From: Deltaproteobacteria bacterium
GTDB taxonomy: Bacteria; Omnitrophota; Gorgyraeia; Gygaellales; Profunditerraquicolaceae
Assembly: GCA_050258655.1 (NCBI GenBank)
Contig: JBLMZF010000106.1
Span: forward strand, 2,669-66,668
DNA: 64,000 nt
Direction of reading: 5' to 3'
Shown here: piece by piece, positions 11,400 through 51,584 of the stretch
Layout: each line of letters starts with the position of its first letter
How positions within the stretch are numbered: the stretch's first letter is position 1
Position numbers and translations under genes: made by a program
The notes under the pieces: generated by a model
What the model was told of the DNA's origin: nothing
Database searches by the model: none
Seen by the model: the letters and a program-made list of their open reading frames with translations, nothing else

Positions 11400-11404
11400 G
11401 ATCC

Positions 11405-17285: not shown

Positions 17286-17287
17286 TA

Positions 17288-17908: not shown

Positions 17909-17977
17909 CTAAATAGACAGCGAAAAATAGGAAGTCTAACAGCTTTTTTTAAGGATTTGGGGTTGAATTGGCTTATT

Positions 17978-18006
17978 GCGCTTGCGTAGGTTGGAACCTA
18001 CGCAAG
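17978..18006. repeat. REP-like hairpin, right copy (gcg-cttgcgtaggtt-gg-aacctacgcaag)
   Basis: Inverted partner of 17257-17285. Lies 16 nt downstream of the leuS stop. Confidence 0.85.
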
Positions 18007-18021
18007 CGGCGAAGCGGGGAA

Positions 18022-20439: not shown

Positions 20440-20441
20440 AT

Positions 20442-20840: not shown

Positions 20841-20863
20841 CCTACGAAGTTGAAAAGGTTAAC
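20837..20863. repeat. half-copy of the ttttcaact…agttgaaaa palindrome family (caacctacgaagttgaaaaggttaacc)
   Basis: 14/15 identity to one arm of the 10102-10137 palindrome, followed by the ggttaacc mini-palindrome. Sits between the nfo start and the response-regulator stop. Confidence 0.6.
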
Positions 20864-35388: not shown

Positions 35389-35556
35389 TCTGGCTTTCAA
35401 AAGGATCGCCTTTAGGGGGGTAGAGACCATTATAGCAAAAAACCCGGGAAATAAATAGGGACAGAAACTATTTGTCAACGCGTTGTTGAAAAACGGTTTC
35501 TGTCCCTATTTTTTGCCCTGTTTGTTTACCTGTGGTTCCCGGGTGAATCCCGAAAC

Positions 35557-36030
35557 CTATGCAGTCTTTTTCCGCCTGAAGCCAGCCATACCGAGGAGAC
35601 CGCTGCCCAGCAGCAGAAGTGTCGCGGGTTCGGGTATGGGACTGCTGATATCATTGAAGATCCAGTGCGGGTCAGTCCTCGGTCCGATGTCGGATGTCGT
35701 GAATATGAGCTGCTGGTCAGTGAACCAGAGGGACTCGGGCACATCCGTCGAGTATGTCTTCCAGTCCGGATACGTGCCGCCTGTCTCAGTCACCGTGCCG
35801 ATAAGCACCCCGTTCGCGGTCCTGACTGTCAGCATATCGCCGGCAGAGCCCGCGGGCGGATCCATCGCGTTGATCTCCTGGTAATTGAAATTCAGCGTTT
35901 TGCCGAGCTCCATGGACTTGGTGAAATCCTGCCGGGATGTCGTCCAGCCTTCCCAGGGAAGGGCCCAGGCTGCTTCCGTGCTCAGGACGACCGCCGTCGC
36001 GAGCAGAAGCAGTGAAACGAGTTTTTTCAT
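35557..36030 (-). CDS. PEP-CTERM sorting-signal secreted protein
   Basis: Signal peptide MKKLVSLLLLATAVVLSTEAAWA. C-terminus IPEPATLLLLGSGLLGMAGFRRKKTA is a PEP motif plus TM plus basic tail, the exosortase recognition tag. Confidence 0.75.
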   Translation of the reverse strand: MKKLVSLLLLATAVVLSTEAAWALPWEGWTTSRQDFTKSMELGKTLNFNYQEINAMDPPAGSAGDMLTVRTANGVLIGTVTETGGTYPDWKTYSTDVPESLWFTDQQLIFTTSDIGPRTDPHWIFNDISSPIPEPATLLLLGSGLLGMAGFRRKKTA

Positions 36031-36169
36031 TGCCCACCTCCTTTCATTTCATTAAAACAACTCTCCCGTTTATGTAAAAGCATTATCCGTACCAAAACAC
36101 GCTGAAGCGGCAGATGCGCCGCCGGAGGGCTGGGGAGACTCCGCTTGTCCTTATTTGTAATCATGATGT

Positions 36170-36206
36170 TGAAAAAAGAAGAGCGGCGGGATACCGCCGC
36201 TCTTAC
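36170..36206 (-). terminator. rho-independent terminator downstream of the DUF1328 gene
   Basis: Minus-strand stem agagcggcgg / ccgccgctct with a 5-nt loop, followed by cttcttttttc. Confidence 0.6.
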
Positions 36207-36229
36207 CGTTGGAAAAAGACGATGGGTCT

Positions 36230-36397
36230 TTAGATCTGCCGCGGCCTCCTGCCCATGATCAGGCTGACGATGAAAAGTATGAGGAAGATGAAGAACAGGA
36301 CTTTCGCGATGTCCATCGAGGTGCCCGCTATGTTCGTGAAGCCGAACAGGGCCGCGACGATAGAAACGATCAGGAAAATAATTGACCAGGTAAGCAT
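36230..36397 (-). CDS. small membrane protein, UPF0391/DUF1328 family
   Basis: 55 aa, [55 protein letters not shown]. Two-TM hairpin with the family-typical LFGFxxIAG…AKxLFF pattern. It is below the 60-aa cutoff of the ORF track. Confidence 0.65.
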
Positions 36398-36467
36398 ACA
36401 CGCTCCTTTCTTTATAAAAGTTTTGCTTTTCCCTCTTTATTTACTATACTCTCGAAGGGCAGCTCCC

Positions 36468-38501
36468 TCAATCGGCCGGCGCCCCTTTGTACTGATCTTT
36501 TTCCGCCGCTCTGCCGTCACTCTTCGACAGGCAGCGCAGGAGCTCCGCGACGCTCCACGCCTGCGCGACGCAGCCGCGCGCCGCGAACGGAGTCTCCGCG
36601 TCGAAGATCTCGCTGATCGACCCGATGCAGCCGTCGTCCAGGTGCGAAGAGAACCCCCGCAGGAACCGGGCGCCGTCCGAATCGCCGTGCACCTTGCGCC
36701 AGGCGTCGAAAAAAGGACCGATGAGCCAGGCCCATACCGTGCCTTCGTGGTATGCGGCATCGCGGGAACGGATATCGCCGTAATACTTCGGCTTGAAGTC
36801 GGCGGATTCCCTGGAAAGCGAGCGCAGCCCTACCGGTGTCAGCAGCCTTTGTTCCGCTTTTTCCAGCACGCTTTCCCACCGCTCTCTGTCCAGGACCGGA
36901 TGCGTGAGGCTGATCGCCAGGAGCTGGTTGGGCCGGAAGGAAGTGTCATCACCCCATTCTCCGTCGACGATGTCGTACAGGTACCCTCCCTTTTCGTACC
37001 AGAACCTCCGGTTGAACGCTTCGCGGCACCGTTCGGCCTGCTCTTTCAGAGAGTGCGCCGCATCCCTGCCGCGCTCCTCCTCGACCCAGCCTGAGAGAAG
37101 GCGCAGCGCGTTGTACCAGAGGGCGTTTATCTCAACGGCCTTGCCCCTCCTCGGCGTCACGACCCACTCGCCCACCTTCGCGTCCATCCATGTCAGCGCC
37201 ACCCCCCGGTCCCCCTGCCGCACGAGACCGTCGTGCGGGTCCACTCCGATGTTGAAAAGGGTACCCTGCGTGTAATTTTCGACGATATCGAGCAGGCGGG
37301 GAAGCATGAACCGCAGCAGACCACGCTCCCCTGTGTAGGCCAGGTAACGCTCTATCGCGTGGAAGAACCAGAGCGTCGCGTCGGCGGTGTTGTAGACAGC
37401 CTGGGCGTTGCCTTCCGGGAAACGATTGGGGATCAGACCGTTGTTGATGTGATGCGCGAAGGTGCGCAGGATCCAGGCCGCCTCGGCGTGGCGGCCCGTC
37501 ACCAGTGCCAGCCCTTCGAGGCTGATCATCGTGTCGCGTCCCCAGTCGGTGAACCAGTGGTAACCCGCGATGACCGTGCGCACCTCTCCGCCATATGCGT
37601 TCGCGCGCGCCAGGTCCTGCGTCCGTCCGGCGGGCGTCACGATGAACTGGTCCGCCGCCAGGACAAGCTGGCGCAGGGGACCGTCAGGAGGAGCTTCAGC
37701 TATCGACAGCAGGACCTGCCTCCGCTCGTTCTCGGCGGACAGCGCATCCTGCGGTTTGAGCGACAGGAGGAGTTCCCATTCTTCTGTCGAAGCGGCGAAG
37801 GCGGCCGGCGTATCCGGCGAAAGGCTGGCCGAGAAATAACCGGGGCTCCAGAGACCGCCCCGCGAGGTGTAGCCGAGGGTCTCTTCGGTCCTGTAGAGCA
37901 GCTCGTCGACGATAAGCCTTTTGCAGACGAAAGCCCGGTCACGGCCGTACAGGAGCATCCTGAGCCGGGGAAGATAGGCGCGCTCCGAGACTTCGTACCT
38001 GTCCTCTGTCACGGTCAGCAGATAATCCTTGCGCAGGGGCGTGTCGACAGGCTCCTCGTGCCGCCGGAAATTGATCGCCGGCCTCAGCCGCAGTTCCACC
38101 GGTACTTCCCCTGCGACCATCCGGTAAAGCACGAAGACCGTGTTCTGTTTGTACGGGCAGAAGACGCGCTTCTCGATCACCGCCCGCCCCGTCTCATAGC
38201 GCCAGACGGGAAGCCCAAGCTCAAGACGGAAATCGCTGCACCGGCAGCAGTCCTTCTGCGGCCCGCAATCCGAGCGTTCCTCGCCGCCGAGCGACAGGCA
38301 CGCCCCGCCGGTGACCGCTTCTTCATACAGGTGATTGAGCATCACCCTGCGGCCCTGCGCGGGAAGATCGGCGATCAGCAGCCCGTGATAGCGCCTGGTG
38401 ATCACTCCGGCAACAGTACCCGAGGCATATCCCCCGAGCCCGTTGGTCACCAGCCACTCCTTCGTCAGCAGAGCTTCCTGTGAGCAGTCGAGGATACCCA
38501 T
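36468..38501 (-). CDS. amylo-alpha-1,6-glucosidase / glycogen debranching enzyme (GDE_N plus GDE_C six-hairpin glycosidase)
   Basis: 677 aa. N-terminal WLVTNGLGGYASGTVAGVITRRYHGLL is typical of the archaeal/bacterial GDE N-domain. C-terminal (alpha/alpha)6 region with …HWFTDWGRDTMISL…. Confidence 0.85.
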   Translation of the reverse strand: MGILDCSQEALLTKEWLVTNGLGGYASGTVAGVITRRYHGLLIADLPAQGRRVMLNHLYEEAVTGGACLSLGGEERSDCGPQKDCCRCSDFRLELGLPVWRYETGRAVIEKRVFCPYKQNTVFVLYRMVAGEVPVELRLRPAINFRRHEEPVDTPLRKDYLLTVTEDRYEVSERAYLPRLRMLLYGRDRAFVCKRLIVDELLYRTEETLGYTSRGGLWSPGYFSASLSPDTPAAFAASTEEWELLLSLKPQDALSAENERRQVLLSIAEAPPDGPLRQLVLAADQFIVTPAGRTQDLARANAYGGEVRTVIAGYHWFTDWGRDTMISLEGLALVTGRHAEAAWILRTFAHHINNGLIPNRFPEGNAQAVYNTADATLWFFHAIERYLAYTGERGLLRFMLPRLLDIVENYTQGTLFNIGVDPHDGLVRQGDRGVALTWMDAKVGEWVVTPRRGKAVEINALWYNALRLLSGWVEEERGRDAAHSLKEQAERCREAFNRRFWYEKGGYLYDIVDGEWGDDTSFRPNQLLAISLTHPVLDRERWESVLEKAEQRLLTPVGLRSLSRESADFKPKYYGDIRSRDAAYHEGTVWAWLIGPFFDAWRKVHGDSDGARFLRGFSSHLDDGCIGSISEIFDAETPFAARGCVAQAWSVAELLRCLSKSDGRAAEKDQYKGAPAD

Positions 38502-41030
38502 CTACCTGTCCTTGTACAATCCGTCAAGTTTTGTCAGGCTGGGCAAAAGGTCCACGCCTTTGCCCAGCACTCCCCTCTCCCAGGCATTTCCCCGCGCCTG
38601 CATGCGCTCGGGCATGGTGCGGATGGTGAACTGCGCGGGATCGAGTTTCCGGGTCACCTCGTTCCAGGCAAGCGGACACGAAACGGTAGCCTTTTCCTTC
38701 GGCCGGACGGAATACGGAGCGGCCATCGTCTTTCCTTTCCCGTTTTGCAGGAAGTCGAGATAGACTTTGCCCTCGCGGGCATGGGGCATACGTTTGACAC
38801 TGGTGATCGCCGGGATCAGCGAGTTGACGTACCTGTTGACCAGTTCGGCAAAGGTGCGCGCCTGGTCATAGGTGTAACGGGCGGCAAGCGGCACATACAC
38901 ATGCATTCCTTTCGCGCCTGAGGTCTTGCAGTACGAAGGGCAGCCGATCTTCTCCAGGACCTCATGCGTCACCAGCACAGCCTCGACGACGTCCGCGAAC
39001 GATGCCAAATGCGGGTCGAAATCGAGCACCAGATAATCGGGGTAATCAGGTCTCTGTATCCGGGAATTCCACGGGTTTATCTCGATGCACCCGAGGTTTA
39101 CCATGTACAGGAGCGACGCCTCGTCCTGGCAGACCATGTACGAGACCGGCTCCTCTCCCGGCTCGCGAACGGTATACGTCTTTACCCAGTCCGGGACGAT
39201 ATCGCCCACGTTCTTGTGGAAAAAGCTCTTCCCGTGGATCCCGTTCGGGAAACGGTGGAGGGATTCGGGCCTGCCGGTAAGGAACGGCAGGATCCGGGAG
39301 GCAGCCGTCCGGTAATACTCGATCAGGTCGAGCTTGGTGTAGCCTTCGTCCGGCCAGAACACCTTGCTCAGGTTGGTGAGTTTCACCTCTCTGCCGCTCA
39401 CCGCGACGGTCTCTTCGTTCTCCTTTTTCTCAACGGGAAGAAACCGGCGGACGGGCGCGGCCTGCGGCGCCTCCCGCCTGACTTCCGACGGAGCCTTGTC
39501 AGAGCGGAGCCCCAGGAACACGGGATGGCGCATCAGACCTTCCTGCGTCCATTCGGTGAAACGCACTTCACAGACCAGCCGCGGCTCGACCCAGGCCGCA
39601 TCACGCGCCGACTCAAGGTTCCTGAACGGGGAGCGCTGACGCTCAAGCGGCTGGAGCCTCCGGAACAGCGAATCGAGTTCACGGTCGCTGAAGCCGCCCC
39701 CGCTGTGACCGATATAGACGAACCCGCCTTTTTCGTCATAGAGCCCCAAGAGCAGAGAACCGAAACGCGTGCGCCCGCCTTTGGGCGCGGTGAACCCCCC
39801 GATGACAGCCTCCTGTCGTTTCTCGGCCTTGACCTTCTGCCAGGTCCGGGTCCTCCTGCCTTCCTCGTACACGCTTGAGCCGTCCTTGGCAAGCATTCCC
39901 TCGACACCGTTCTCGACCACGAACCGGAACAGCTCAAGCCCTTTGTCCTCGATATGGGAGCTGAACCGTATATCTGTGACCAGAGGCGACAGGAATCTCT
40001 CGAGCAGCTCTTTGCGGCGGCGCAGGGGAAGGGAACGCAGGTCGTATCCGGCCAGAAAAAGCAGGTCGAACACGTAATACACAAGTATCCCCCTGCCCGT
40101 GCGGATGTAGTTCTGAAGAAGCTGGAAATCCGCCCGGCCTTTCTGATCGACCGCTACGATCTCTCCGTCGATCACCGCTGACGCAGAGAAACGGGAGAGT
40201 GAACGGAAAACGGGCTCGAACTGACGGCTGAAATCCTGGCCGTTGCGCGAGTAAAGGCGCGTTCCCTGCGGTCCTGTCTGGGCGATAGCGCGGTAACCGT
40301 CCCATTTTATCTCGAAAAGCCATCCCTGCCTGTCGAACGGCTCGTCGACAAGTGTGGCAAGCATGGGACGGACAATATGCGGGATGGAAGCGCGCGGGAC
40401 GCCGCCGGCCTCAAGCGGGGAAAGGTCCGGGGCGGGTATCCCGACGGGGCGGGAAGCGGTGCCGCCTGCGATCTCGCGCAGGTCGCGGCCGGAAAGGACA
40501 GACCTGTCCTCGCGGGTGATGTCGGACCCCGAAGCGGTATCGTCGTCCTTCTTGAACAGGAGCCAGGCGTTCTCGCCTCTTGACGGCATGCGCACGAGGT
40601 AGAATTCGCCCTTGAGCTTATGCCCTTCGAGCACGAACGCGACCCTGCCGTCGCGTATCTGGCGCTCGATCTCCTCACCGGGATCACCGTCGCCGTGGGC
40701 GGGCCTGTACGTCCCCCGGTCCCACACCATCACCGTACCGGCCCCGTAATTACCCTCGGGGATGGTCCCCTCGAACCCGGCGTAATCGAGCGGGTGGTCC
40801 TCAACCATCATCGCCAGCCGTTTAACACGGGGATCAAGGGAAGGCCCTTTCGGCACCGCCCAGCTCTTCAGGGCGCCGCCCGCCTCGATCCTCAGATCGT
40901 AATGCAGGTGCGACGCGCGGTGCTTCTGCACGACGAACGCGAGAGGTGCCCGTTTCTCTTCTGTCTTTCGGGGAGCTGGCTCGGGGGTACGGGACAGATC
41001 CCTCTTGCGCAGGTATTCCCTGAGGGCCAT
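38502..41030 (-). CDS. ligD: multidomain ATP-dependent DNA ligase LigD (phosphoesterase-ligase-polymerase)
   Basis: 842 aa. N-terminal 3'-phosphoesterase (FVVQKHRASHLHYDLRIE…WAVPKGPS). Central ligase with adenylation Lys (FEIKWDGYR). C-terminal LigD primase-polymerase domain. Confidence 0.9.
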   Translation of the reverse strand: MALREYLRKRDLSRTPEPAPRKTEEKRAPLAFVVQKHRASHLHYDLRIEAGGALKSWAVPKGPSLDPRVKRLAMMVEDHPLDYAGFEGTIPEGNYGAGTVMVWDRGTYRPAHGDGDPGEEIERQIRDGRVAFVLEGHKLKGEFYLVRMPSRGENAWLLFKKDDDTASGSDITREDRSVLSGRDLREIAGGTASRPVGIPAPDLSPLEAGGVPRASIPHIVRPMLATLVDEPFDRQGWLFEIKWDGYRAIAQTGPQGTRLYSRNGQDFSRQFEPVFRSLSRFSASAVIDGEIVAVDQKGRADFQLLQNYIRTGRGILVYYVFDLLFLAGYDLRSLPLRRRKELLERFLSPLVTDIRFSSHIEDKGLELFRFVVENGVEGMLAKDGSSVYEEGRRTRTWQKVKAEKRQEAVIGGFTAPKGGRTRFGSLLLGLYDEKGGFVYIGHSGGGFSDRELDSLFRRLQPLERQRSPFRNLESARDAAWVEPRLVCEVRFTEWTQEGLMRHPVFLGLRSDKAPSEVRREAPQAAPVRRFLPVEKKENEETVAVSGREVKLTNLSKVFWPDEGYTKLDLIEYYRTAASRILPFLTGRPESLHRFPNGIHGKSFFHKNVGDIVPDWVKTYTVREPGEEPVSYMVCQDEASLLYMVNLGCIEINPWNSRIQRPDYPDYLVLDFDPHLASFADVVEAVLVTHEVLEKIGCPSYCKTSGAKGMHVYVPLAARYTYDQARTFAELVNRYVNSLIPAITSVKRMPHAREGKVYLDFLQNGKGKTMAAPYSVRPKEKATVSCPLAWNEVTRKLDPAQFTIRTMPERMQARGNAWERGVLGKGVDLLPSLTKLDGLYKDR

Positions 41031-41035
41031 GCGGA

Positions 41036-41902
41036 TCAGGAACCGTCTATGGGACGCATTGTCCCGGGTTTGCGGACCGCCTTCCAGGGCGTACGGATCC
41101 CTTCCTCCTCAGCGAACCCCTGCATGATGTCCCCCGTCACGGTCCCTTCGAAATTTATGGTACGTTCGCGCGCGGCGTATTCAAGCGAGATGGTGAAAAG
41201 GATCTTATCGGCCTCGACCCGCAGCGACACCGCCTTCCCCTGGGCGGGAAACGCCGCCAGCGAGGCAGTGCCCTTCTGGAAGACCTGGTCCACCTTCATC
41301 GAATACCTCTGGCGGCCGCCCTGCCATACCCAGGTCCCCGACACATTGGACGGCACGATCCAGTAATACACCCTGCTGTCGCCGAGACGGGCCTGTCCAT
41401 CGGGCTTCCATTCCCCGAGATCGAAATCCCGGGCGACAAGCCGCGTGCCCGGCTTGAGCTCGGCAAGAAGCTTCGGCCTTATCGCCGCCGACTGACGGGG
41501 AAGGAGATAGAGTGAGACGACGCTGGCCGAGGAAAGGGGGACGGAACCGAGGTCCGTCTCGATGAATTCGACACGGTCGGAGACTCCGGCTTTCCGGGCG
41601 TTCTGCCTTCCCTGCTCGAGACGGATGTGGTCGGTATCTATACCGACTCCCCGGCATCCGAACTCGCTCGCGCCGGTGATAGCCACCCTGCCGTCGCCGC
41701 AGCCCAGGTCATAGAGGACATCGCCTTTGCCCACGCCGGCCATCTTCAGCATCAGCCTCGCCACCGATAGAGAATAGGCCTCTGCCGCTTCGGCCGGGGT
41801 CAACATCTCCTCGTCGTCTTCCAGATTCCCCGGATCTTCCTGGGCAAAGCAGGCAAAGGGCAGGACGGCGACGGCCAGGGCCGCGATGATGTAGGGTCGC
41901 AT
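41036..41902 (-). CDS. class I SAM-dependent methyltransferase with cleavable-type N-terminal signal peptide
   Basis: MRPYIIAALAVAVLPFACFAQ signal. Motif I VLYDLGCGDGRV. Post-I acidic (GIDTD) and motif II/III. C-terminal about 100 aa beta-rich extension. Confidence 0.7.
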   Translation of the reverse strand: MRPYIIAALAVAVLPFACFAQEDPGNLEDDEEMLTPAEAAEAYSLSVARLMLKMAGVGKGDVLYDLGCGDGRVAITGASEFGCRGVGIDTDHIRLEQGRQNARKAGVSDRVEFIETDLGSVPLSSASVVSLYLLPRQSAAIRPKLLAELKPGTRLVARDFDLGEWKPDGQARLGDSRVYYWIVPSNVSGTWVWQGGRQRYSMKVDQVFQKGTASLAAFPAQGKAVSLRVEADKILFTISLEYAARERTINFEGTVTGDIMQGFAEEEGIRTPWKAVRKPGTMRPIDGS

Positions 41903-41934
41903 GTGTTTTCCGTTTTTGAGGTGATCGCGCGTTT

Positions 41935-42399
41935 TCAGGCAGTGCGCTCTATATCCTTCAGCGCCTCTTCGAGGTAAAGGATATGCTGTTTTTCTTCGCC
42001 CCGCCCGTTATCAACGAGGAACCGCGCCTTGAGGGAAAGGTCTTGCCGGGCGGCCTCATCGTACGCGTGGCTCGCCAGCGTCTCGTTCCTCAAAAGAAGC
42101 CGCAGGATACCGGCGTCCCCGGAGCCCGGTGATCGCGACTCGAACTCCTCGGTGTCGAAATCCTTCTCACTTGAAGGACAACGGGCGGGGGCATTGGCGC
42201 CGAGGTCCACTATCAGGTTCGAGAGCTGCTGGAAATGGACCGCGTGCTCGCTCCGGTACGACTGGAGCCTGTCCTTTATCACCGGCTCGCTCAGCTCCCT
42301 GATAGCCTGGTCGTACGCGTCGATGGTATCAAGGTCGGTCTGGGCAAGTTCGGTCAGCCTTTTTGCCATCTCGAGGTCAGCCATCATGTCCTTTCCCAC
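41935..42399 (-). CDS. ferritin-like four-helix-bundle protein (DUF2383/PA2169-like)
   Basis: 154 aa. Helical, with paired acidic/His positions (…DAYDQAIREL…EHAVHFQQL…ASHAYDEAAR…EKQHILYLEEAL). Confidence 0.55.
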   Translation of the reverse strand: MGKDMMADLEMAKRLTELAQTDLDTIDAYDQAIRELSEPVIKDRLQSYRSEHAVHFQQLSNLIVDLGANAPARCPSSEKDFDTEEFESRSPGSGDAGILRLLLRNETLASHAYDEAARQDLSLKARFLVDNGRGEEKQHILYLEEALKDIERTA

Positions 42400-42420
42400 C
42401 GGCCGCCGCGGGGCCGCGGC

Positions 42421-43632
42421 CTACGGTGAAGTCAGTTCCACTTTTATCCACCCCGCCTGCCTGTGGTCGAACGATTCGTACGCCTGCACCGCGTCCCTGA
42501 GCGGCTCTACGTTCGTCAGCACCTTCGTTGGGTCGATGATCCCTTCTTCGATAAGCTCGATCAGAAGCGGGACGTATTTGCGGTGATTGCAGTTCCCCAT
42601 CTTGATGGTCAGGTTCTTGTTCATCGCCATCCCGATCGGGAACCAGCGCACCGATTGAGGGTAGACGCCGATTATTGAAAGAGTGCCGGCCTTGTCGACC
42701 GCCTCCACCTCCCATTGCAGGGCCTGCGTCGGAGCGTCCCCCGGCCGCCAGCTTTCGCCCTGCACGTTGGTACGCGGGGCTATCTGGCTCAGCTCCTGGC
42801 GGAACCACTGCTCTTCGACACGTTCAGTCCCTGCCGCCGGTCCGGAATGGGGCAGCTGGGCATCGACACCTACCGCGTCGATGACCCTGTCCGCCCCGAT
42901 CCCTCCGGTGAGGCCGAGGATCGCCTTGACCGGGTCCTCGCGGGAAAAGTCGACCGTTTCAGCGCCCTGGGCTTTCGCCATTTCCAGACGCGACGGGATC
43001 TGGTCGACAGCTATCACCCTTCCCGCGTTGAGGAGACTGGCGCTGGCGATCGCGAACTGGCCGACGGGGCCGCACCCGAAAACAACGACTATGTCGCCTG
43101 CCTTTATCTCGGCGTTATCCGCCCCGAAATACCCCGCCGGGAAAATATCTGAGAGGAACACTCCCTGCTCGTCGGTGATACTGTCGGGCAACTTGACCAG
43201 GCCGACGTTCGCGAACGGGACCCTCACCTTCTCCGCCTGCAGGCCGTTGAACGGACCGCTGTCGGCGGGGCCGCCGAAGAAGGCGGTCCCGGCGCGCCTG
43301 CCATGAGGATTGGCGTTGTCGCACTGGGAGAAATATCCCGCGCGGCAGTAAGAACAGTACCCGCAGGCGATCGAGGACATTATCACCACCCGATCGCCGA
43401 CGTTCAGGTTGCGCACACTGTCCCCCAGCTGCTCGATTATCCCCACTCCCTCGTGGCCGAGCACCGTGCCGGGACGCATGCCTGTCAACGTGCCCCGGAT
43501 CATGTGCAGATCGGTCCCGCAGATGGCGCTTGAGGTTACGCGCACGACGGCGTCTGTCGGAGACTCGATATGGGGGTCGGGGACGTCCTCGACGCTGATG
43601 GAACCGATGCCCTTGAAAACGACGGCTTTCAT
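42421..43632 (-). CDS. zinc-dependent alcohol dehydrogenase, glutathione-independent formaldehyde dehydrogenase (FdhA)-like
   Basis: MKAVVFKG…ICGTDLHMIRG…GHEGVGIIE… catalytic Zn site. Structural Zn Cys cluster (CGYCSYCRAGYFSQC). Rossmann VVVFGCGPVG. Roughly 100-aa insertion typical of FdhA. Confidence 0.85.
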   Translation of the reverse strand: MKAVVFKGIGSISVEDVPDPHIESPTDAVVRVTSSAICGTDLHMIRGTLTGMRPGTVLGHEGVGIIEQLGDSVRNLNVGDRVVIMSSIACGYCSYCRAGYFSQCDNANPHGRRAGTAFFGGPADSGPFNGLQAEKVRVPFANVGLVKLPDSITDEQGVFLSDIFPAGYFGADNAEIKAGDIVVVFGCGPVGQFAIASASLLNAGRVIAVDQIPSRLEMAKAQGAETVDFSREDPVKAILGLTGGIGADRVIDAVGVDAQLPHSGPAAGTERVEEQWFRQELSQIAPRTNVQGESWRPGDAPTQALQWEVEAVDKAGTLSIIGVYPQSVRWFPIGMAMNKNLTIKMGNCNHRKYVPLLIELIEEGIIDPTKVLTNVEPLRDAVQAYESFDHRQAGWIKVELTSP

Positions 43633-43643
43633 CGCTCCTCCGT

Positions 43644-44462
43644 TCAGGTTGCCTGTACAGGCAGTTTGACCCTTCCGACCGAGGCTCCCCACATGGAGAA
43701 CAACGCGGTCAGGACCATCAACACGAACCCGGAGAGGCCTGCCGCGGCCGCCGCTTTCGCCGCCGCCGCCGCTCCCTGTTCGATATTGCGGGCGGTGGTG
43801 ATCAGATTGTTGACGGTCGACTCGGCCTGCTGGCGGTCCATGTTGTTGCGGCTCTGGAGCGCGTTGATCGCGGATTCCTTGTCCTGAGGCGTCAGTGAAT
43901 CCGGCCCCTGCTGGGCCATCTTCTGTACCATTGAACCGACTTCAGGAGGCACGGTCGGAGCAGGAGCTCCCATTCCCGCCTGCGTGCTCGACTGCGGCCC
44001 CTGCTGCTGTTTGTTCATACCGAGCATCTGCTGCGCCTGCGAACCCATCTGCTGCTTCTGCTGCGGGCTCATCTGGCTTATCTGACTTGTGCCCGCGCCG
44101 AGCGCGCTGCTCATCAGCGAGAACGTCCCGCCGAGGAGCGAACCGACCGTCGACGTCAGGAGCGTCAGCGTTACCAGGGACGTGAAACCCCAGACGACAA
44201 AACCATGGAGCGCTGCCGAAGAACCCAGCAACACCGGCGACAGCTTGCCCGCCACCCAGCCGCCGGCGAAAAACGCGATCAGGCTCGTCACGAGCAGCCA
44301 GATCAGCGATCCGATACCGACTCCCTGGGCCGTCTGCGTCCCGGCCATACCGAGCGTGCCTATGCCCAGCCCGATACCGAGAAGGGAAAGCGTGATCTGC
44401 ACCGCGATCACCGTTACGAATCCTGCGAATATCGCTCCCCACGAGGCCTTTGTAACGGCCAT
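43644..44462 (-). CDS. hypothetical membrane protein with Q/M-rich low-complexity linker
   Basis: Four predicted TM helices at the N-terminus. A Gln/Met-rich segment (QMSPQQKQQMGSQAQQMLGMNKQQQGPQ). C-terminal TM. No known motif. Confidence 0.45.
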   Translation of the reverse strand: MAVTKASWGAIFAGFVTVIAVQITLSLLGIGLGIGTLGMAGTQTAQGVGIGSLIWLLVTSLIAFFAGGWVAGKLSPVLLGSSAALHGFVVWGFTSLVTLTLLTSTVGSLLGGTFSLMSSALGAGTSQISQMSPQQKQQMGSQAQQMLGMNKQQQGPQSSTQAGMGAPAPTVPPEVGSMVQKMAQQGPDSLTPQDKESAINALQSRNNMDRQQAESTVNNLITTARNIEQGAAAAAKAAAAAGLSGFVLMVLTALFSMWGASVGRVKLPVQAT

Positions 44463-44527
44463 ATGGCCTGTTTCGGTCCGTTCAACCATTGTAGGCTCCT
44501 TTCCTTATGAAAACTGCCTTGCGCCCA

Positions 44528-45304
44528 TTACCCCGCATGGGCATATTCAAGGCTTTCCTTCAACTTCGAAAGCAGGTCCGGCACCTTGGTAGGGGGCACC
44601 TCCTCGGGCCTGACGTGCTTTTCCTTCCCGTGCACCTTTGCCTCGATGACACCCTTGAGGGTCTCGGTGTACGTGTCCTTGAAGCTTTCAGGCCGGAAAC
44701 GGCCGGACAGCTGTTCGACCAGCCTCAACGCCAGCTCCAGCTCTTTCTCCGGCACCTTCTCGCCTTCAGGAGGAAGGTCGAGCGGCCGCGCGTCGCGGAT
44801 CTGTGATTCAAAACGCATCCGGTCGAGCACCAGCACCGGCCCTTCGGCCTTGAGCAGGGCCAGGTGCTCTTTCTGCCGGAGCACGAATTTCGCCACGCCT
44901 ACTTTGCGCGAGCGCCTCAGCGCCTCGCGCAGGAGCGCGTACGCCTTCTTGACCTGATGCGCCGGCTCGACATAGAACGGTTTCTCGAGGAGCTTTATAT
45001 CGATCTCATCCTCTCGGATGAACTCAAGCACCTCGATCGTCTCGGTCTTCTTCGCCCGGGCCTTCTGGAAATCATCGGCCTCCACGACGACATACCGGCC
45101 CTTCTCGTACTCGTACCCCTTGACTATGTCCCTGTAGGGCACTTCTTCCCCGGTCGCCTCGCAGATACGGGCGTACCGGATCGGGCTCATATCCTTCTTG
45201 TGCAGCATGTCAAAGTCGAGGCCCGTCTCATCGGAAGCTGAATACAGCTTAACCGGAATGTTGACCAGGCCAAAGCTGATCATTCCCGTCCAAAGGGACC
45301 TCAT
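44528..45304 (-). CDS. ku: NHEJ DNA end-binding protein Ku
   Basis: 258 aa. MRSLWTGMISFGLVNIPVKLYSA… is the hallmark bacterial Ku N-terminus. Ku core beta-barrel. Basic C-terminal tail. Confidence 0.9.
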   Translation of the reverse strand: MRSLWTGMISFGLVNIPVKLYSASDETGLDFDMLHKKDMSPIRYARICEATGEEVPYRDIVKGYEYEKGRYVVVEADDFQKARAKKTETIEVLEFIREDEIDIKLLEKPFYVEPAHQVKKAYALLREALRRSRKVGVAKFVLRQKEHLALLKAEGPVLVLDRMRFESQIRDARPLDLPPEGEKVPEKELELALRLVEQLSGRFRPESFKDTYTETLKGVIEAKVHGKEKHVRPEEVPPTKVPDLLSKLKESLEYAHAG

Positions 45305-45307
45305 CGG

Positions 45308-45739
45308 CTACGTGCGGCACGAACCGATCCCCCGGGAGAGCATGGCCAGCGAGAACGCTCCCAGCGCGAGACCGAAATCCCTGGCCGCGATATCATAGTA
45401 GCCGGGGATAGAAAGAAGATTGATGACAATGGCCAGCTCCCACAACCCGACGATCGTCCCGCCGACCGAAGGGGCCAGCGCGACCAGCAGGCCCGCGACG
45501 ATCTCGATGACGCCGACGACGTGCATGAACGAGGTGGCGCCGCCCGGGAACGCTGAAGCGACAGCCGGGTTGAGGTACACGTTCCAGTTGACGAGGAAAT
45601 GGAAGAACTTATCGAGCCCGGCGACGATGGGTATGACAGTGAAACCGAAACGCAGAAGCCGCTGCGCGTTAATGATCCCCTTCGTCAGGAAGACCCTGTT
45701 GACGGGGGGAGCCGCCCTAGTTTCCGATACAGTCGCCAT
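45308..45739 (-). CDS. DoxX-family membrane protein
   Basis: 143 aa, 4 TM, DoxX-like (…RLLRFGFTVIPIVAGLDKFFHF…). 4-nt gap to ku. Confidence 0.65.
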   Translation of the reverse strand: MATVSETRAAPPVNRVFLTKGIINAQRLLRFGFTVIPIVAGLDKFFHFLVNWNVYLNPAVASAFPGGATSFMHVVGVIEIVAGLLVALAPSVGGTIVGLWELAIVINLLSIPGYYDIAARDFGLALGAFSLAMLSRGIGSCRT

Positions 45740-45778
45740 ACCAACCTCCTGTTTTTCTTTTCATTCTATATGTTCGTC

Positions 45779-47047
45779 TCACGTACCGTAATCTCCAGCC
45801 TCCCCTTTTTTCTGATGTTTCTCCCCGATTGACTCAGCGGTCGAGGGAGGCAGATACGTCTGACCGCGCCGCTCGAGGGCGGCCAGCACGGCTTCGTGCG
45901 TCATGCGGGATGGAGGCAGGGCCGGCCTGTAGCCTGAGACCGCCAGGCTGCCGGAAACGACCTTCTCGATCATCCCGGCGTCCATCAGTTCCCTGGCGAG
46001 AGGCGAAAAGAACAGGCGGGGGATCCTGAGGGACGAGCAGATATGGTCGGCGGTCGGCGGGATACGGCCTTCGACGAAAGCGCGCGTTATCTCGCCCGCG
46101 ATGGCAAGCGCGAGTTTCTTACGCAGGCACAGGCTTGTCGAAGGGAAGGACGGGAAGAAACCGTAGGTCTCCCTGTTCGCTATCGAGAAGGCGAGCTCCC
46201 CTCCGAACAGGGCGATGGTCCAGCTCATCTGAAGCCAGATCAGGAACAGAGGCAGGGCAGCGAAGCTGCCGTAGACGGCGCCGTAGTCGGCCACGCCGAT
46301 CTGGAGAGTGATGTAGAACCACTGCGCGGCCTGGAACAGGATTCCCGCCGCCACTCCGGCGACGGCCCCGGCGTAAAAAGGCACCTTGGTGTTCGGCATG
46401 AACAGGTAGAGGAACGTGAACAGGCACCAGTTCGCGGCGAACGGCACCAGCTGCAGCAGCCAGGCCAGCGTAGTGCTTATGGGCGGCAGGAACGAAACGC
46501 GCTGTGCGGCTGAGCTCAACTGGGCGGTGATCAGAACAGTAGCCCCCTGAGAGACCGCGAGCAGTACCGTCCCGACGAACACCACGGACAGGTAATCCGC
46601 CATCTGCCGCGCGACCCCCCTGCCCTGCCGGACGTCCCAGATAGTGTTGAACGCCTGTTCGATCGAGGAGAGAAGCCCGACGATGGCCAGAAAAAAGGAC
46701 GCGACGCCGACACCCGCGATCAGGCCGCCGCGCGAGTTCTCGAGCGCGGAAGCGGAAAACTTGAGCAGGAACTCAACGAACTGCCGCTGCCATTCCACCT
46801 GGGTCGAAAGAGCGGCCTGCAGCAGGCGCGTGAGACCGAAGCCTTTGGCGATGCCGAAGATAGTCGCCAGCAGGGGTACGATCGAAAGCAGGGTGTAGAA
46901 CGTCAGGGTCGATGCCCACAGAGCGCAGTTGTCGTCGATGAAGCTTTTGACGGCGATAGCGGCAACGCGGACAGCGGTAAAGGCCTTACCGCCCCGGCCA
47001 CCCCCCCGCATCAGTCGGCTGTAAACGGCTTTCAGGTATGAGATCAT
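45779..47047 (-). CDS. YihY/BrkB-family inner membrane protein with C-terminal soluble extension
   Basis: 422 aa. YihY signature region (…WASTLTFYTLLSIVPLLATIFGIA…), six TM, then about a 120-aa C-terminal domain. Confidence 0.75.
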   Translation of the reverse strand: MISYLKAVYSRLMRGGGRGGKAFTAVRVAAIAVKSFIDDNCALWASTLTFYTLLSIVPLLATIFGIAKGFGLTRLLQAALSTQVEWQRQFVEFLLKFSASALENSRGGLIAGVGVASFFLAIVGLLSSIEQAFNTIWDVRQGRGVARQMADYLSVVFVGTVLLAVSQGATVLITAQLSSAAQRVSFLPPISTTLAWLLQLVPFAANWCLFTFLYLFMPNTKVPFYAGAVAGVAAGILFQAAQWFYITLQIGVADYGAVYGSFAALPLFLIWLQMSWTIALFGGELAFSIANRETYGFFPSFPSTSLCLRKKLALAIAGEITRAFVEGRIPPTADHICSSLRIPRLFFSPLARELMDAGMIEKVVSGSLAVSGYRPALPPSRMTHEAVLAALERRGQTYLPPSTAESIGEKHQKKGEAGDYGT

Positions 47048-48879
47048 TTCTGGCGCACCTGCCTGAAGAAAAAAGCCGTCTCAGCGGGCACGCACACGTC
47101 TTTCAGGCCAAGGGGATGTACTCTCCCCTGTCCGCCGAAACACCTGTCGTCGCTTGAGAACACGAGCCGCCAGACGTTGCGCCTTCCGGGAGCCAGCAAG
47201 GGTTCAGACAGTGGGACATATCTCAGTCCGCTCCCTCCGTAATTGACCATCAGCAGCCTGTCCCCCTGCGCCCCGCCGTCGTATCTGATCACGAACGACG
47301 AGGGGCCCAGGACCGCTCCCTGGAGCGAATCCCTCGATTGCCTGGCTACGACCGGGTCTTTTTTCCTCAGCCCGATGATCCTCCTGTGGAAACGGAGAAT
47401 GGCTTTCCCCCTGAGGCCGGGACCGATATGGGCCCTGCGAAAGGTGGATGCGTCGCACGGATGCGGGATAAGTCCGAGCTTACCCGGCCGCGCGTACGTC
47501 GGGAACTGCGCGATGAAGGCCTTCCTGCCCTCGTATATCTTCTCAGCCAGACGCGGTATGTCCGCGAAAAATGGGAACGGCGCCGTCTCCCCCCATTCCT
47601 GCCCCATGAACAACAGCGGCGTGCAGGGAGAAAGCATCATGAAGGTCATCAGGGCGCGGTACAGGCCGGGGCTGATGAGGTCGGCGATCCGTCCGGCCTC
47701 GGGATGGTTCGCGATCTGATCGTGGTTCTGCAGGTAGACCACGAACGATGCCCCGGGTTCCCGAGTCACGGGCGTACCTCTTTTCTTACCCTGCCAGAAA
47801 TAATACTGCCCCTGGAAAAGGAACCCCTTCTTCGCGGCCGAAAGCAGCTCCTGCGGCGAGCCGCGGTAATCCTGGAAATATGCTTCGCGGAACCCGGTCG
47901 CGGCCACGCGGACCGAATGGTGGAAATCATCGGCCCACATCGCGTCGAAACCGAGCCCTCCGTCCCCGCTCCCGGCAAGGCAGCGCGTATCCTGGGGTTC
48001 GTTCTCGGCGAAAAAAAGCACTCCTCTTGCGCCCGCGGCTTTTCTGCCGGCGTCCGTTATGTCTGAGAGGATGTGGCAGGGACTTCTGTCATGGATATCC
48101 TGGGTCGCGTCCACACGCAGACCGTCAAGGTGGTATTCGCGGATCCAGGATACGGCATTGCCGGTGAAAAAATCCCTGACGCCGGCCGATTGCGGTCCGT
48201 CGAAATTGAGCGCGTTGCCCCAGTCTGTGCGAAGAGAAGAAAAATAGGAGTCGCTGAACCTGCGCAGGAAACAGCCTTCGGCGCCCATGTGGTTATAGAC
48301 GACATCAAGGACGACGCCGATACCCAGGGAATGGGCGGTGTCGACAAAACGCCGGAGATCGTCGGGACAGCCGTAATTGCGGGAAGGGGCGTAAATAGCG
48401 ACGCCGTCGTAACCCCAGTTCCATCTGCCGCTGAACTCGTTGACCGGCATCAGTTCGACAGCGGTCACGCCCAGCGCGCGCAGGGCGACCAGCCGCCGCC
48501 GCGCGGAGGCGAAGGTCCCCTGGGGAGTGAACGTCCCGATATGCAGCTCATACAGCACCTGGCCGCGCAGGGACAATCCCTTCCAGCCGGCATCATGCCA
48601 CCGGTAGGCCTCGGGATCTATGACCATTGACGGCCCGAAAGGCCCTTCGGGCTGAAAGCGTGAACAGGGGTCAGCGTAGACTTTATTACCGTCAAGCCTC
48701 AGCAGGTAAAGGTCGCCGGCGCGGATACGGGGGGCACGTCCATGGAAATACCCTCCCTTGCCCCTGGCAAGGGAAAGGACAAGCGTCCTTCCATCCCCGG
48801 CCATCACGTCCACGCGCCTGCTTTTAGGCGACCATACCCTGAACGCCGTACCTTGACGGGACGGCACCGCTCCCAGCAT
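47044..48879 (-). CDS. treZ: malto-oligosyltrehalose trehalohydrolase (GH13)
   Basis: 611 aa. N-terminal CBM48-like. GH13 catalytic regions (VVLDVVYNHMG, GLRVDATQDI, FFAENEPQD, FDAMWADDFHH). Confidence 0.9.
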   Translation of the reverse strand: MLGAVPSRQGTAFRVWSPKSRRVDVMAGDGRTLVLSLARGKGGYFHGRAPRIRAGDLYLLRLDGNKVYADPCSRFQPEGPFGPSMVIDPEAYRWHDAGWKGLSLRGQVLYELHIGTFTPQGTFASARRRLVALRALGVTAVELMPVNEFSGRWNWGYDGVAIYAPSRNYGCPDDLRRFVDTAHSLGIGVVLDVVYNHMGAEGCFLRRFSDSYFSSLRTDWGNALNFDGPQSAGVRDFFTGNAVSWIREYHLDGLRVDATQDIHDRSPCHILSDITDAGRKAAGARGVLFFAENEPQDTRCLAGSGDGGLGFDAMWADDFHHSVRVAATGFREAYFQDYRGSPQELLSAAKKGFLFQGQYYFWQGKKRGTPVTREPGASFVVYLQNHDQIANHPEAGRIADLISPGLYRALMTFMMLSPCTPLLFMGQEWGETAPFPFFADIPRLAEKIYEGRKAFIAQFPTYARPGKLGLIPHPCDASTFRRAHIGPGLRGKAILRFHRRIIGLRKKDPVVARQSRDSLQGAVLGPSSFVIRYDGGAQGDRLLMVNYGGSGLRYVPLSEPLLAPGRRNVWRLVFSSDDRCFGGQGRVHPLGLKDVCVPAETAFFFRQVRQK

Positions 48880-48930: not shown

Positions 48931-49161
48931 CTATGTGCGCTGTTTCCTGCCGATCAGGTAACCGAGGCCGAGACCAGCCGCGGCGATGCTGCCTACGACC
49001 AGCATCGGGTGATCATTGATCATCGTCTTGCTCTGGGATACGATCGTGTCCCTCAGGTCGCTGTATCTTTCGGTGATCAGTTTGGAGATCTCGTTCTTCT
49101 TCTCTTTTGCAGCCGTGTTCAGAAGGTTAAGGGCCTCATCGATCCTGGATTCGCCTTCCAT
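48931..49161 (-). CDS. DUF883 (ElaB/YqjD-like) membrane-anchored protein
   Basis: 76 aa. Helical N-region plus C-terminal TM with GLGLGYLIGRKQR, typical of the ElaB/YqjD/YgaM family. Confidence 0.6.
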   Translation of the reverse strand: MEGESRIDEALNLLNTAAKEKKNEISKLITERYSDLRDTIVSQSKTMINDHPMLVVGSIAAAGLGLGYLIGRKQRT

Positions 49162-49259
49162 TTCGTGCTCCTTCCATAACCGGGGGGTTACCCGTTTTCC
49201 ATACTTCTCATGCTACACTACGCCCTCCCCCCCGTAAACTCCGGAAGCTCACCTTTTTT

Positions 49260-49287
49260 TTGACTTTTCCCCACGGGGGACTATAAT
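49260..49287 (+). promoter_or_regulatory. near-consensus sigma70 promoter (TTGACT-N16-TATAAT) for the XRE-cupin regulator / acyl-CoA synthetase unit
   Basis: TTGACT at 49260-49265 and TATAAT at 49282-49287. SD aaggaggg lies 6 nt before ATG 49326. Confidence 0.7.
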
Positions 49288-49325: not shown

Positions 49326-49880
49326 ATGTCAGAAAAGCTCAAACAGATCGGGCAGAGGATGCGCGACTTGCGGGAGATCGCCGGCCTCTCCATAGAAGCG
49401 ATGGGACAGCAGTTCAAGGTCCCCCCCGCGCTGTACGCGAAGTACGAAGCCGGGGAAACGGATATCCCCGTCAGTTTCCTGGTCGAAGTCGCCCAGCATT
49501 TCAACGTGGAACTCACCGCTCTCCTGACCGGCGGCGACCCCCATCTTCATTCGTACTGCCTTGTCCGCAAGGATAAGGGACTTACCACCAAACGCCGGAA
49601 GGAATACAAATACCAGGACCTGGCGTTCAACTTCGTCCACAAGAAAGCGGAAGCCTTCCTGGTATCCGTCGACCCTAAACCGGCCAGGACCGCGGTGCAT
49701 TATTACGCGCACCCGGGACAGGAGTTCAATTACGTCATCAAGGGGACCCTGAAAATCCTGCTGGACGGCCATGAGGTGATGCTCTCGGAAGGAGATTCCC
49801 TCTACTTCGATGCGGGCATCAAGCACGCCATGCGGGCAGTAGGCCAGAAGCCCGCCAAATTCCTGGCAGTCATACTGTAA
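49326..49880 (+). CDS. XRE-family HTH transcriptional regulator with C-terminal cupin sensor domain
   Basis: HTH_XRE (LKQIGQRMRDLREIAGLSIEAMGQQFKV). Cupin motifs (HYYAHPGQEFNYVIKG…GDSLYFDAGIKH). Start set at MSEKLKQ because of the SD and promoter spacing. Confidence 0.8.
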   Translation: MSEKLKQIGQRMRDLREIAGLSIEAMGQQFKVPPALYAKYEAGETDIPVSFLVEVAQHFNVELTALLTGGDPHLHSYCLVRKDKGLTTKRRKEYKYQDLAFNFVHKKAEAFLVSVDPKPARTAVHYYAHPGQEFNYVIKGTLKILLDGHEVMLSEGDSLYFDAGIKHAMRAVGQKPAKFLAVIL

Positions 49881-49919: not shown

Positions 49920-51584
49920 ATGCTCACGAAATTCGCACGGGACAGTTACTCTTCCTACGAGGAATTCTGTCAGCACTGCAGGATCAAGGTGCCAGACCCG
50001 TTCAATTTCGCTTTCGACGTCGCCGACTCGCTCGCAGAGTCCTCGCCTGAAAAGCCGGCGATGGTCTGGTGCGACGACAAGGGAAAGTCCGCGCGTTTCA
50101 CCTTCGCCGAGATGAAGAAGCGCAGCGACCAGACGGCCAATTTCCTCACCGCGCTCGGGATCAAGAAAGGCGACCCGGTGATGCTTATCCTCAAGCGCCG
50201 GTATGAATACTGGTTCTTCCTCCTGGCGCTGCACAAGATCGGGGCCATCGCGATACCTGCCACCCATCTCCTCAAGGCCAAGGACGTGATCTACCGGAAC
50301 AATGCCGCAGGGATCAAGATGATCGTCGCCGTCGACGAACCGGCGCTGCTTGACCAGATAGACATAGCGGCGAAGGAATCGCGCACGCTCGAACACCGGG
50401 TGACGGTCGGGGGGGCGTATAAGGACTGGGTCGATTACCACACCGAGGTCGGTAAGTACACGGACGTGTTCACGAAACCGAGAGGCAAGGCCGCGACGAA
50501 GAACAGCGACATCATGCTCCTCTATTTCACCTCTGGAACAACGGGCATGCCGAAGATGGTCCAGCATAATTTCACCTACCCGCTCGGCCATATCCTGACC
50601 GCCAAATTCTGGCAGAACGTCCGGGAGAACGGCCTTCACCTGACCGTCGCGGACACGGGCTGGGCAAAAGCGGCTTGGGGAAAGATCTACGGCCAATGGC
50701 TGGCGGGCAGCGCGATATTCGTCTACGACTACGATAAGTTCGTGCCGAAAGACCTTCTCGATGTCATCTGCAAGTATGGGGTGACCACCTTCTGCGCGCC
50801 ACCCACCGTCTTCCGGTACCTGATCAAGGAAGACCTGACTAAATACGACTTCAGCAAGCTCAAATACTGCGTGACCGCGGGAGAGCCCCTGAACCCGGAA
50901 GTGTACAACCAGTGGCTCAAGCTCACCGGCCACAGGCTGATGGAAGGATACGGCCAGACCGAATGCATCGTGGCCCTCGCCACTTACCCCTGGCTTGAGC
51001 CGAAACCGGGATCGATGGGAAAACCCTCGCCGGGCTACGATATCGACATCGTCAACGAGAAAGGCGAGCCCTGCGGGATAGGCGAGGAAGGACAGATCGT
51101 CATCCATACCGAAAAAGGCGCGCCGATAGGGATGTTCGACGGGTACTACCGGGACAAACGGCTGACCTCTAAGGTCTGGCACGACGGTGTCTATTATACC
51201 GGTGACATGGCCTGGAAGGACGAGGACGGCTATTTCTGGTTCGTGGGCCGCGCCGACGACCTGATCAAGAGCTCGGGCTACCGCATCGGGCCTTTTGAAG
51301 TGGAAAGCGCCCTGCTCGAGCACCCGGCGGTGCTTGAATGCGCTATCACGGCCGTCCCTGACCCGGACAGGGGCCAGATCGTGAAAGCGACGATCGTGCT
51401 CTCCAAGGCATATGCCGGCAAGGGAGGCGACGAGCTGGTCAAAGAGCTCCAGGAGCATGTCAAGAGGGTCACGGCCCCCTACAAATATCCCCGGATCATC
51501 GAGTTCGTGACCGAGCTCCCCAAGACCATAAGCGGCAAGATCCGCAGGGTCGAGATCAGGGATAAGGACGAAAAGTCCGAATAA
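49920..51584 (+). CDS. AMP-forming acyl-CoA synthetase (medium-chain/ACSM-like)
   Basis: 554 aa. AMP-binding signature [15 protein letters not shown]. Hinge and A8 motif ([38 protein letters not shown]). A10 Lys (ISGKIRR). Confidence 0.9.

Follow-up and report, generated by a model that had tools for sequence, protein, structure and literature searches.

A probable twelve-gene operon combining separated ku and ligD genes with trehalose and glycogen genes in an uncultured Deltaproteobacteria bacterium

The two genes of bacterial non-homologous end joining (NHEJ), ku and ligD, usually lie side by side. Why are they separated by four other genes in a 64-kb stretch of DNA from an uncultured Deltaproteobacteria bacterium, within a co-directional run that also holds trehalose and glycogen genes, and do the intervening genes take part in end joining? 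We addressed these questions by sequence comparison of the whole stretch (hereafter, the window), which comes from a metagenome-assembled genome (MAG). With moderate confidence, we read the locus as a lineage-specific stress or stationary-phase operon in which NHEJ and glucan-mobilising genes would be co-transcribed with a backbone of envelope genes, the link between them being co-regulation rather than biochemical partnership.

The region is probably a single operon of ~13 kb and 12 genes, larger than the ten genes listed in an earlier note on this DNA, which was made from the letters alone. In the direction of transcription, the order is ElaB-like, treZ, yihY, DoxX-like, ku, a glutamine-rich membrane protein, zinc-dependent alcohol dehydrogenase (ADH), DUF2383, an apparently exported methyltransferase, ligD, glycogen debranching enzyme (GDE), and DUF1328. 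All of them are on the minus strand, to which the coordinates of the operon and of other genes of the window refer below unless the plus strand is indicated. The ten genes of the earlier note were all present where it had placed them. Family assignments were judged against the curated cut-offs of Pfam and TIGRFAM/NCBIfam models, and most of the note's assignments passed: treZ, YihY, ku, ligD, GDE, the ferritin-like protein, the methyltransferase, and the zinc-dependent ADH were upheld, whereas the labels DoxX, DUF883/ElaB, and FdhA-like turned out to be weaker than had been stated. The run from yihY through the DoxX-like gene, ku, the membrane protein, ADH, DUF2383, and the methyltransferase to ligD was reproduced in three independent Logan assemblies (L172–L174) at 99.5–100% amino-acid identity; therefore, the arrangement is not an assembly artefact. 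The LigD protein has a 100%-identical entry at NCBI ("MAG: DNA ligase D [Deltaproteobacteria bacterium]"), and since the next best match is just 54–56% identical, the lineage must be poorly sampled.

Both NHEJ proteins were recognised well above the cut-offs. Ku, the DNA-end-binding protein (44528..45304), scored 300.4 bits with TIGR02772 (cut-off 150) and 161 bits with PF02735. Its best relative among 185,579 species genomes is 53% identical. LigD (38502..41030) is a three-domain ligase of the order phosphoesterase–ligase–polymerase, and both the whole-protein model and three domain models were exceeded (TIGR02776, 546 bits versus 373; TIGR02779, 293 versus 228; TIGR02778, 250 versus 215; TIGR02777, 210 versus 144). 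Its catalytic motifs KWDG (position 242), DFD (670), and HYD (43) are intact. By sequence criteria this is the Ku and LigD pair of bacterial NHEJ, and end joining is a predicted capability of the cell. The two genes are 3.5 kb, or four genes, apart and so depart from the usual adjacency.

The sugar enzymes are encoded at either side of the NHEJ genes. The product of treZ (47044..48879), a malto-oligosyltrehalose trehalohydrolase, scored barely above the cut-off of TIGR02402 (550.1 bits versus 538.8) and has GH13 regions I–IV intact (DVVYNH, GLRVDA, ENE, and NHD). The GDE gene (36468..38501), which begins immediately past the ligD stop codon, encodes an enzyme of the archaeal type composed of GDE_N and GDE_C (TIGR01561, 390 bits versus 364; PF06202, 413 bits).

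Two relatives show that the locus consists of separable layers. The first, L175, is a 19.4-kb contig on which divergently oriented genes for an acyl-CoA synthetase and a cupin–helix-turn-helix (HTH) protein are followed by those for the ElaB-like protein (69% identical to its counterpart in the window), YihY (41%), the membrane protein (57%), DUF2383 (50%), the methyltransferase (51%), DUF1328, and a PEP-CTERM protein (58%), with order and orientation as in the window. The DUF1328-family gene stands directly behind the methyltransferase gene, and the L175 locus lacks treZ, the DoxX-like gene, ku, ADH, ligD, and GDE. Because L175 keeps the membrane protein, DUF2383, and methyltransferase genes without any NHEJ gene, these three "intervening" genes form part of a conserved, separable backbone and are not NHEJ accessories. 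Relative to this backbone, the NHEJ, sugar, and ADH genes of the window amount to four separate insertions or deletions, at which the passengers are treZ, the DoxX-like gene with ku, ADH, and ligD with GDE, respectively. The earlier note had taken the genes wedged between ku and ligD as a sign of functional coupling; with three of the four retained in L175 without NHEJ, and none seen near the 80 closest Ku relatives (see below), that argument is not supported.

The second relative, L181, is a fragment of 1968 bp that carries the C-terminus of ku (72% identity), the membrane protein (61%), and ADH (80%), joined at the same junctions as in the window. In a neighbour-joining tree of the membrane protein, the window paired with P0242 (98% bootstrap) and L181 paired with L175 (83.5%), which places the composite state on both sides of a small clade. 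The most parsimonious, though not settled, interpretation of this one-gene tree and these short contigs is that the composite would be ancestral and that L175 would have lost the passengers secondarily.

The anatomy of the 12 genes is also consistent with a single unit. A predicted sigma-70-family operon promoter lies ahead of the first gene (49210..49238), with a -35 hexamer TTTACG (49238–49233), a 17-nt spacer, and a -10 hexamer TAGCAT (49215–49210). In an alignment with L175, both hexamers and their spacing are kept and the spacer letters have diverged. An intrinsic terminator closes the unit (36179..36204); it combines an 11-bp stem with eight G–C pairs and a U-tract (-25.8 kcal/mol, z = -7.5 versus shuffled sequences), and it is the sole strong one in the region, with no strong intergenic terminator found inside the unit. 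Gaps between the genes range from -4 to 70 nt. Same-strand genes, short gaps, a promoter at the start, and a terminator at the end plausibly make up one operon, and from these features we infer a continuous transcript; on this point the earlier note, which had described an operon-like unit, is borne out. A hairpin between elaB and treZ was considered as an attenuator and rejected (z = -0.3, not significant). A weak promoter-like site is present at 36471–36443, ahead of the DUF1328 gene, and a search for known RNA families (Rfam) found no element.

In the reading that we favour, the operon has two layers, with the passenger genes interleaved among backbone genes that encode small envelope proteins of a stress type. 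Upon growth arrest (stationary phase, starvation, or desiccation), one promoter would supply end-joining repair, which needs no sister chromosome, together with an aldehyde/alcohol oxidoreductase, membrane and oxidant-handling proteins, and enzymes that would draw on alpha-glucan stores and might feed trehalose formation. The gene identities, the intact motifs of the enzymes, the operon-like layout, the promoter kept in a relative, and the modularity of backbone and passengers are observed; that the genes share a transcript, what induces them, and which sigma factor acts are the parts of this scheme that we infer. The earlier note had seen in the gene content a repertoire for survival of desiccation or stationary phase. 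A thematic fit to stationary-phase or general-stress regulons was confirmed, and a linkage of NHEJ to trehalose or alpha-glucan genes was found in other phyla as well.

This linkage recurs independently in four unrelated lineages. On one strand in Vicinamibacteria (L013), we found the order glgX–treS/pep2–treZ–DUF892–DUF2934–ku–ligD. In Acidobacteriota (L060), glgX precedes ku–ligD; in Chthoniobacteraceae (L068), treS/pep2 is followed by YihY/BrkB and then by ku–ligD; and in Syntrophaceae (L161), ku–ligD is followed by treZ–GH57–amylase. As a separate observation, the stretch between treZ and ku in L013 (8743–9837, plus strand) encodes DUF892, a YciE/YciF ferritin-like family, and DUF2934, and is a convergent counterpart of the combination seen in the window.

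To what extent is the exact arrangement conserved elsewhere? We surveyed the 80 closest Ku loci (≤53% identity) from the species genomes mentioned above, taking neighbours within 10 kb. Over that distance, all 80 lacked the four intervening genes, the DoxX-like gene, and GDE, and a YihY-family homologue was detected by a more sensitive search in one of them (L068). Adjacency of ku and ligD, which the earlier note had called usual and which is not obligatory, was seen in the nearest relatives: ligD directly follows ku in the six closest Ku loci, and the five LigD contexts nearest to that of the window (from Syntrophaceae, Geobacter sp. DSM 9736, Syntrophorhabdales, and two metagenome contigs) all have ku immediately upstream of ligD. 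From the ADH side, neither ku nor ligD was present in the 80 closest ADH loci (metagenomes, 60–71% identity) or in three annotated plasmid contexts. Conserved synteny, which the earlier note had proposed as a check, was thus found in part: the junctions of ku with the membrane protein and of the membrane protein with ADH recur in L181, whereas the intervening genes are missing from the 80 closest Ku loci. Judged by these comparisons, the exact arrangement is confined to the lineage of the window. All-against-all clustering of open reading frames (ORFs) around Ku returned chiefly lineage-specific synteny and antisense shadow ORFs.

Two further observations were made in these surveys. In 10 of the 80 Ku loci (L011, L021, L024, L027, L031, L047, L055, L056, L062, and L066), a bona fide DoxX gene follows ku on the same strand at a distance of ~0.1–3.5 kb. 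All ten are labelled Verrucomicrobiota (Udaeobacter, Chthoniobacterales), and this neighbourhood may represent a conserved link or merely inherited synteny. In L166 and L168, which are of Syntrophorhabdales type and among the nearest LigD contexts, ku–ligD is preceded by a Smr–proC–PCMT run, PCMT being protein-L-isoaspartate O-methyltransferase, an enzyme with a protein-damage repair function in ageing and stationary-phase cells.

Several results weigh against a dedicated stress operon. The conserved promoter is a generic sigma-70-family match, and no RpoS-type, EcfG-type, or other stress-sigma motif was recognised in it. The stress roles of DUF883, DUF1328, DUF2383, and YihY are putative, being drawn from annotation and general background. 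Neither treY nor treS nor glgX, named in the earlier note as the genes that would define the trehalose route, was found in the 64-kb window, which leaves that route incomplete locally. When the genes next to ku in the 80 loci were counted by Pfam family, no stress family dominated (LytB, 12; MFS, six; DoxX, four; cold-shock domain, three). Trehalose or alpha-glucan genes occur near ku in ~4–5 of the 80 loci, a marginal enrichment of ~3-fold over expectation by a rough estimate. Finally, tight co-directional packing is found throughout the window and joins unrelated genes, so an operon-like layout is in itself weak support for a common function.

This last point is the core of an alternative that we regard as rather unlikely but take seriously, namely that the gene order is neutral, a compact and strand-biased chromosome having packed unrelated genes head to tail, with any read-through carrying no adaptive meaning. 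The minus strand holds ~50 of the 53 genes in the window, and the same-strand gaps inside the island (median 32 nt) are indistinguishable from those outside it (33 nt; Mann–Whitney p = 0.34). An unrelated housekeeping run (PilZ genes, folE, mnmE, folC, purH, ychF, and fusA) is just as tightly packed. The co-directionality and tiny gaps that the earlier note had treated as distinctive are therefore not so. Neutral order would also account for the backbone of L175 doing well without the passengers and for the empty Ku and ADH surveys. It accounts less well for L181, where two junctions are kept at 61–80% protein identity, or for the thematic coherence of the gene content. Moreover, at least four other lineages have come independently to similar neighbourhoods of NHEJ, trehalose or glycogen, and ferritin-like genes, as has Pseudomonas, in which the genes are co-induced (PMC3224232).

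Direct mechanistic coupling, with the membrane protein, ADH, DUF2383, and the methyltransferase as end-joining accessories that would, for example, modify or protect Ku, LigD, or DNA ends, is in our judgement very unlikely. The position of the four genes between ku and ligD, with gaps of 5–38 nt, is what such coupling would lead one to expect, and the core of the methyltransferase resembles archaeal chromatin protein-lysine methyltransferases. However, neither the 80 closest Ku loci nor the five LigD contexts nearest to that of the window, with their adjacent ku and ligD, contain any of the four families, and three of the four persist in L175, whose locus has neither ku nor ligD. In addition, the signal-peptide-like N-termini of the methyltransferase and of its inspected homologues place these enzymes, by prediction, outside the cytoplasm, and two other backbone proteins are integral membrane proteins. 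Less probable still is a horizontally acquired mobile island or an anti-phage defence island with NHEJ as cargo. Ku has its closest relatives (≤53% identity) in a scatter of unrelated phyla, as might be expected after transfer, and one mycobacterial study reportedly links NHEJ to anti-phage defence. Against this, neither an integrase or transposase nor a tRNA or direct repeats at the borders were found; GC content and GC content at third codon positions (GC3) match those of the surrounding chromosome; the flanks are core housekeeping genes; flanking genes are syntenic in L175; and PADLOC yielded generic domain-level matches alone. A bolder version of the stress operon, which we consider improbable, is that the backbone would constitute a previously unrecognised dormancy envelope module on which, in this deltaproteobacterial clade, the expression of NHEJ and glucan-mobilising genes would have come to depend obligatorily. 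A cell entering or leaving dormancy would then start chromosome end joining, the release of energy reserves, and envelope remodelling together as one programmed unit, and the split between ku and ligD would set their relative dosage.

The remaining passengers are the ADH and DoxX-like genes. The ADH ORF reaches back to a GTG codon at 43692, and the 403-aa protein counted from ATG is encoded at 42421..43632. It is a zinc-dependent enzyme with ADH_N and ADH_zinc_N domains and intact zinc and NAD motifs. Identification as FdhA, the glutathione-independent formaldehyde dehydrogenase, was not supported, as the protein scored 184.6 bits with the equivalog model TIGR02819 (cut-off 637). Among solved structures, it came closest to 4CPD, an alcohol dehydrogenase from Thermus, which ranked above formaldehyde dehydrogenase (1KOL). 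Homologues are 60–71% identical across phyla, indicating an unusually conserved subfamily. On plasmids of Burkholderia multivorans and Deinococcus aetherius, ADH homologues of ~64% identity are followed by a gene annotated as "four-helix bundle copper-binding protein" (L169, 13209–13559; L170, 13445–13873). This arrangement echoes the succession of ADH and DUF2383 in the window, although the two bundle families differ.

The 143-aa multi-pass membrane protein encoded 3 nt upstream of ku (45308..45739) is weakly DoxX-like (PF07681, 19 bits versus a cut-off of 23.6, E = 0.002). A true DoxX identity was not supported, given the score below the gathering threshold and the lack of significant similarity (hhalign probability of 30%) to genuine DoxX genes adjacent to ku in other phyla. 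Neither GC nor GC3 separates passenger from backbone genes.

The backbone begins with the first gene of the operon (48931..49161), which encodes a 76-aa tail-anchored protein. Of the ElaB/DUF883 models, DUF883_C alone matched (15.6 bits versus 27), and the match covers the C-terminal glycine zipper alone; the size and the glycine-zipper anchor are consistent with membership of the DUF883 family. The gene yihY (45779..47047), which has a 4-nt overlap with the treZ stop codon, encodes a YihY/BrkB-family membrane protein of 422 aa with a C-terminal extension (PF03631, 160 bits). The intervening membrane protein (43644..44489) has 281 aa and a glutamine/methionine-rich linker. It has homologues and no Pfam match; some sources name it "TIGR04086 family" or "PhnA-like", and its distant homologues (34–38% identity) are monocistronic. 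DUF2383 (41935..42399) is a ferritin-like four-helix-bundle protein (PF09537, 35 bits versus a cut-off of 30.8).

The last two backbone genes encode the methyltransferase and DUF1328. The former (41036..41902) is a class I S-adenosylmethionine (SAM) methyltransferase with Pfam and NCBIfam matches, a signal-peptide-like N-terminus, an aKMT-like core with an intact SAM motif (DLGCGDG), and a C-terminal domain of ~100 aa. In comparisons with solved structures, it came closest to 5BXY and to the aKMT entries 5FA8 and 5JWJ. The apparent export of an enzyme that depends on SAM, a cytoplasmic compound, is odd, and all of the homologues that we inspected bear N-termini of the same kind. The family is large, with thousands of matches to proteins of ~300 aa at 37–51% identity in many phyla (P0122–P0240). 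Its members share a layout of signal-peptide-like N-terminus, small aKMT-like/5BXY-like core, and conserved C-terminal domain of ~100 aa. DUF1328 (36230..36397), a YtjA-like membrane protein of 55 aa (PF07043, 61.6 bits), is encoded by the final gene, which has a good ribosome-binding site and is located between GDE and the terminator. The gene is masked by a spurious 124-aa ORF (36027–36401) and had been missed in the earlier note.

Upstream of the operon and divergent from it are, on the plus strand, the gene for an XRE-HTH/cupin regulator (49326..49880), with a promoter TTGACT-16-TATAAT at 49260–49287, followed by an acyl-CoA synthetase gene (49920–51584), both with Pfam matches. Their L175 orthologues are 76% and 75% identical and arranged in the same way. 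The remainder of the window is core chromosome that includes secA, prfB, leuS, murJ, uvrC, lnt, comEC, rlmN, dus, and accA. Some features of this remainder deserve mention. Between the PEP-CTERM and polysaccharide deacetylase genes there is an imperfect inverted repeat (35437–35527) with 43-nt arms that are 81% complementary and a 5-nt loop. An ORF of 900 aa (61237–63939) has no Pfam match and a GC3 of 0.63, below that of its neighbours, and is located in the lowest-GC part of the window (0.515). YchF (58335–59042) appears N-terminally short at 235 aa, with the C-terminal YchF/TGS domains alone detected, and UvrC (10146–11450) is short as well (434 aa); frameshifts, MAG assembly errors, or wrong start-codon choices may be the cause. 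Packing is otherwise tight in the window, but three stretches of 0.7–1.3 kb (14525–15499, 17285–18021, and 20440–21712) lack a convincing ORF. The sole candidate within them is a plus-strand ORF of 405 aa (20499–21716) with low GC3 (0.61).

If transcribed as predicted, the locus would show in compact, natural form how NHEJ can be tied to a programme for dormancy or stress via operon membership and not via shared promoter motifs, in a poorly sampled anaerobic lineage. The three states observed, namely composite (window and L181), backbone-only (L175), and adjacent ku–ligD (elsewhere among the sampled genomes), amount to a small natural experiment in the entry of repair genes into stress operons and their departure from them. 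The locus lends comparative support to the view that NHEJ in bacteria works for cells that are not growing, and opens no new mechanism.

How does the locus compare with known systems? With the canonical two-gene ku–ligD operon it shares the proteins themselves, Ku and a LigD of the Pseudomonas-type order (phosphoesterase–ligase–polymerase), but the genes are adjacent in the canonical case and four genes, or 3.5 kb, apart here. The four lineages with linked sugar genes (L013, L060, L068, and L161) resemble the window in having sugar enzymes encoded on the same strand beside ku–ligD, and additionally in the ferritin-like DUF892 of L013 and the YihY/BrkB of L068. They differ in that ku and ligD are adjacent, the sugar sets are different or fuller (glgX, treS/pep2), and the membrane-protein backbone is absent.

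Regulatory parallels come from other bacteria. In Sinorhizobium meliloti, ku3–ku4 and ligD4 are transcribed from RpoE2 general-stress promoters, and heat and starvation stimulate end joining; EcfG-type boxes are found upstream of a ku gene in ~90% of ku-bearing alpha-proteobacteria, and Bacillus subtilis ku is under SigG, as cited in the same work (PMC6379672). The likeness lies in NHEJ genes belonging to a stress or dormancy regulon, with end joining stimulated in non-growing or stressed cells of those species. The difference is that in those organisms the coupling acts through shared promoter motifs at separate loci, whereas membership of one operon is proposed for the window. In Xanthomonas, isothiocyanate stress co-induces ligD, glycogen and trehalose genes, and alcohol dehydrogenases (PMC8400333).

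A close parallel by gene content, which was the basis of comparison for the non-NHEJ genes in place of orthology, is found in Pseudomonas aeruginosa. There, Ku is PA2150 and LigD is PA2138 (PMC12413089), both within the quorum-sensing- and RpoS-regulated cluster PA2134–PA2192, to which PA2150, the trehalose/glycogen operons PA2151-53 and PA2160-65, glgP, and the zinc-dependent ADH PA2158 belong; oxidative stress induces these genes jointly in a pppA-ppkA mutant (PMC3224232). Shared with the window are non-adjacent ku and ligD genes (11 genes apart in P. aeruginosa), trehalose and glycogen genes, a zinc-dependent ADH, and many small hypothetical proteins. The P. aeruginosa cluster differs in comprising ~60 genes in several operons on both strands, as opposed to a single operon of 12 genes. 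The earlier note had known of no composite locus of this kind, which was too strong in view of P. aeruginosa PA2134–PA2192 (PMC3224232, PMC12413089) and the S. meliloti RpoE2 regulon (PMC6379672). A composite neighbourhood of NHEJ, trehalose, glycogen, and ADH genes with split ku and ligD already exists in P. aeruginosa, where it is not discussed from the NHEJ side, and the window locus is a local version of this known pattern rather than a new system.

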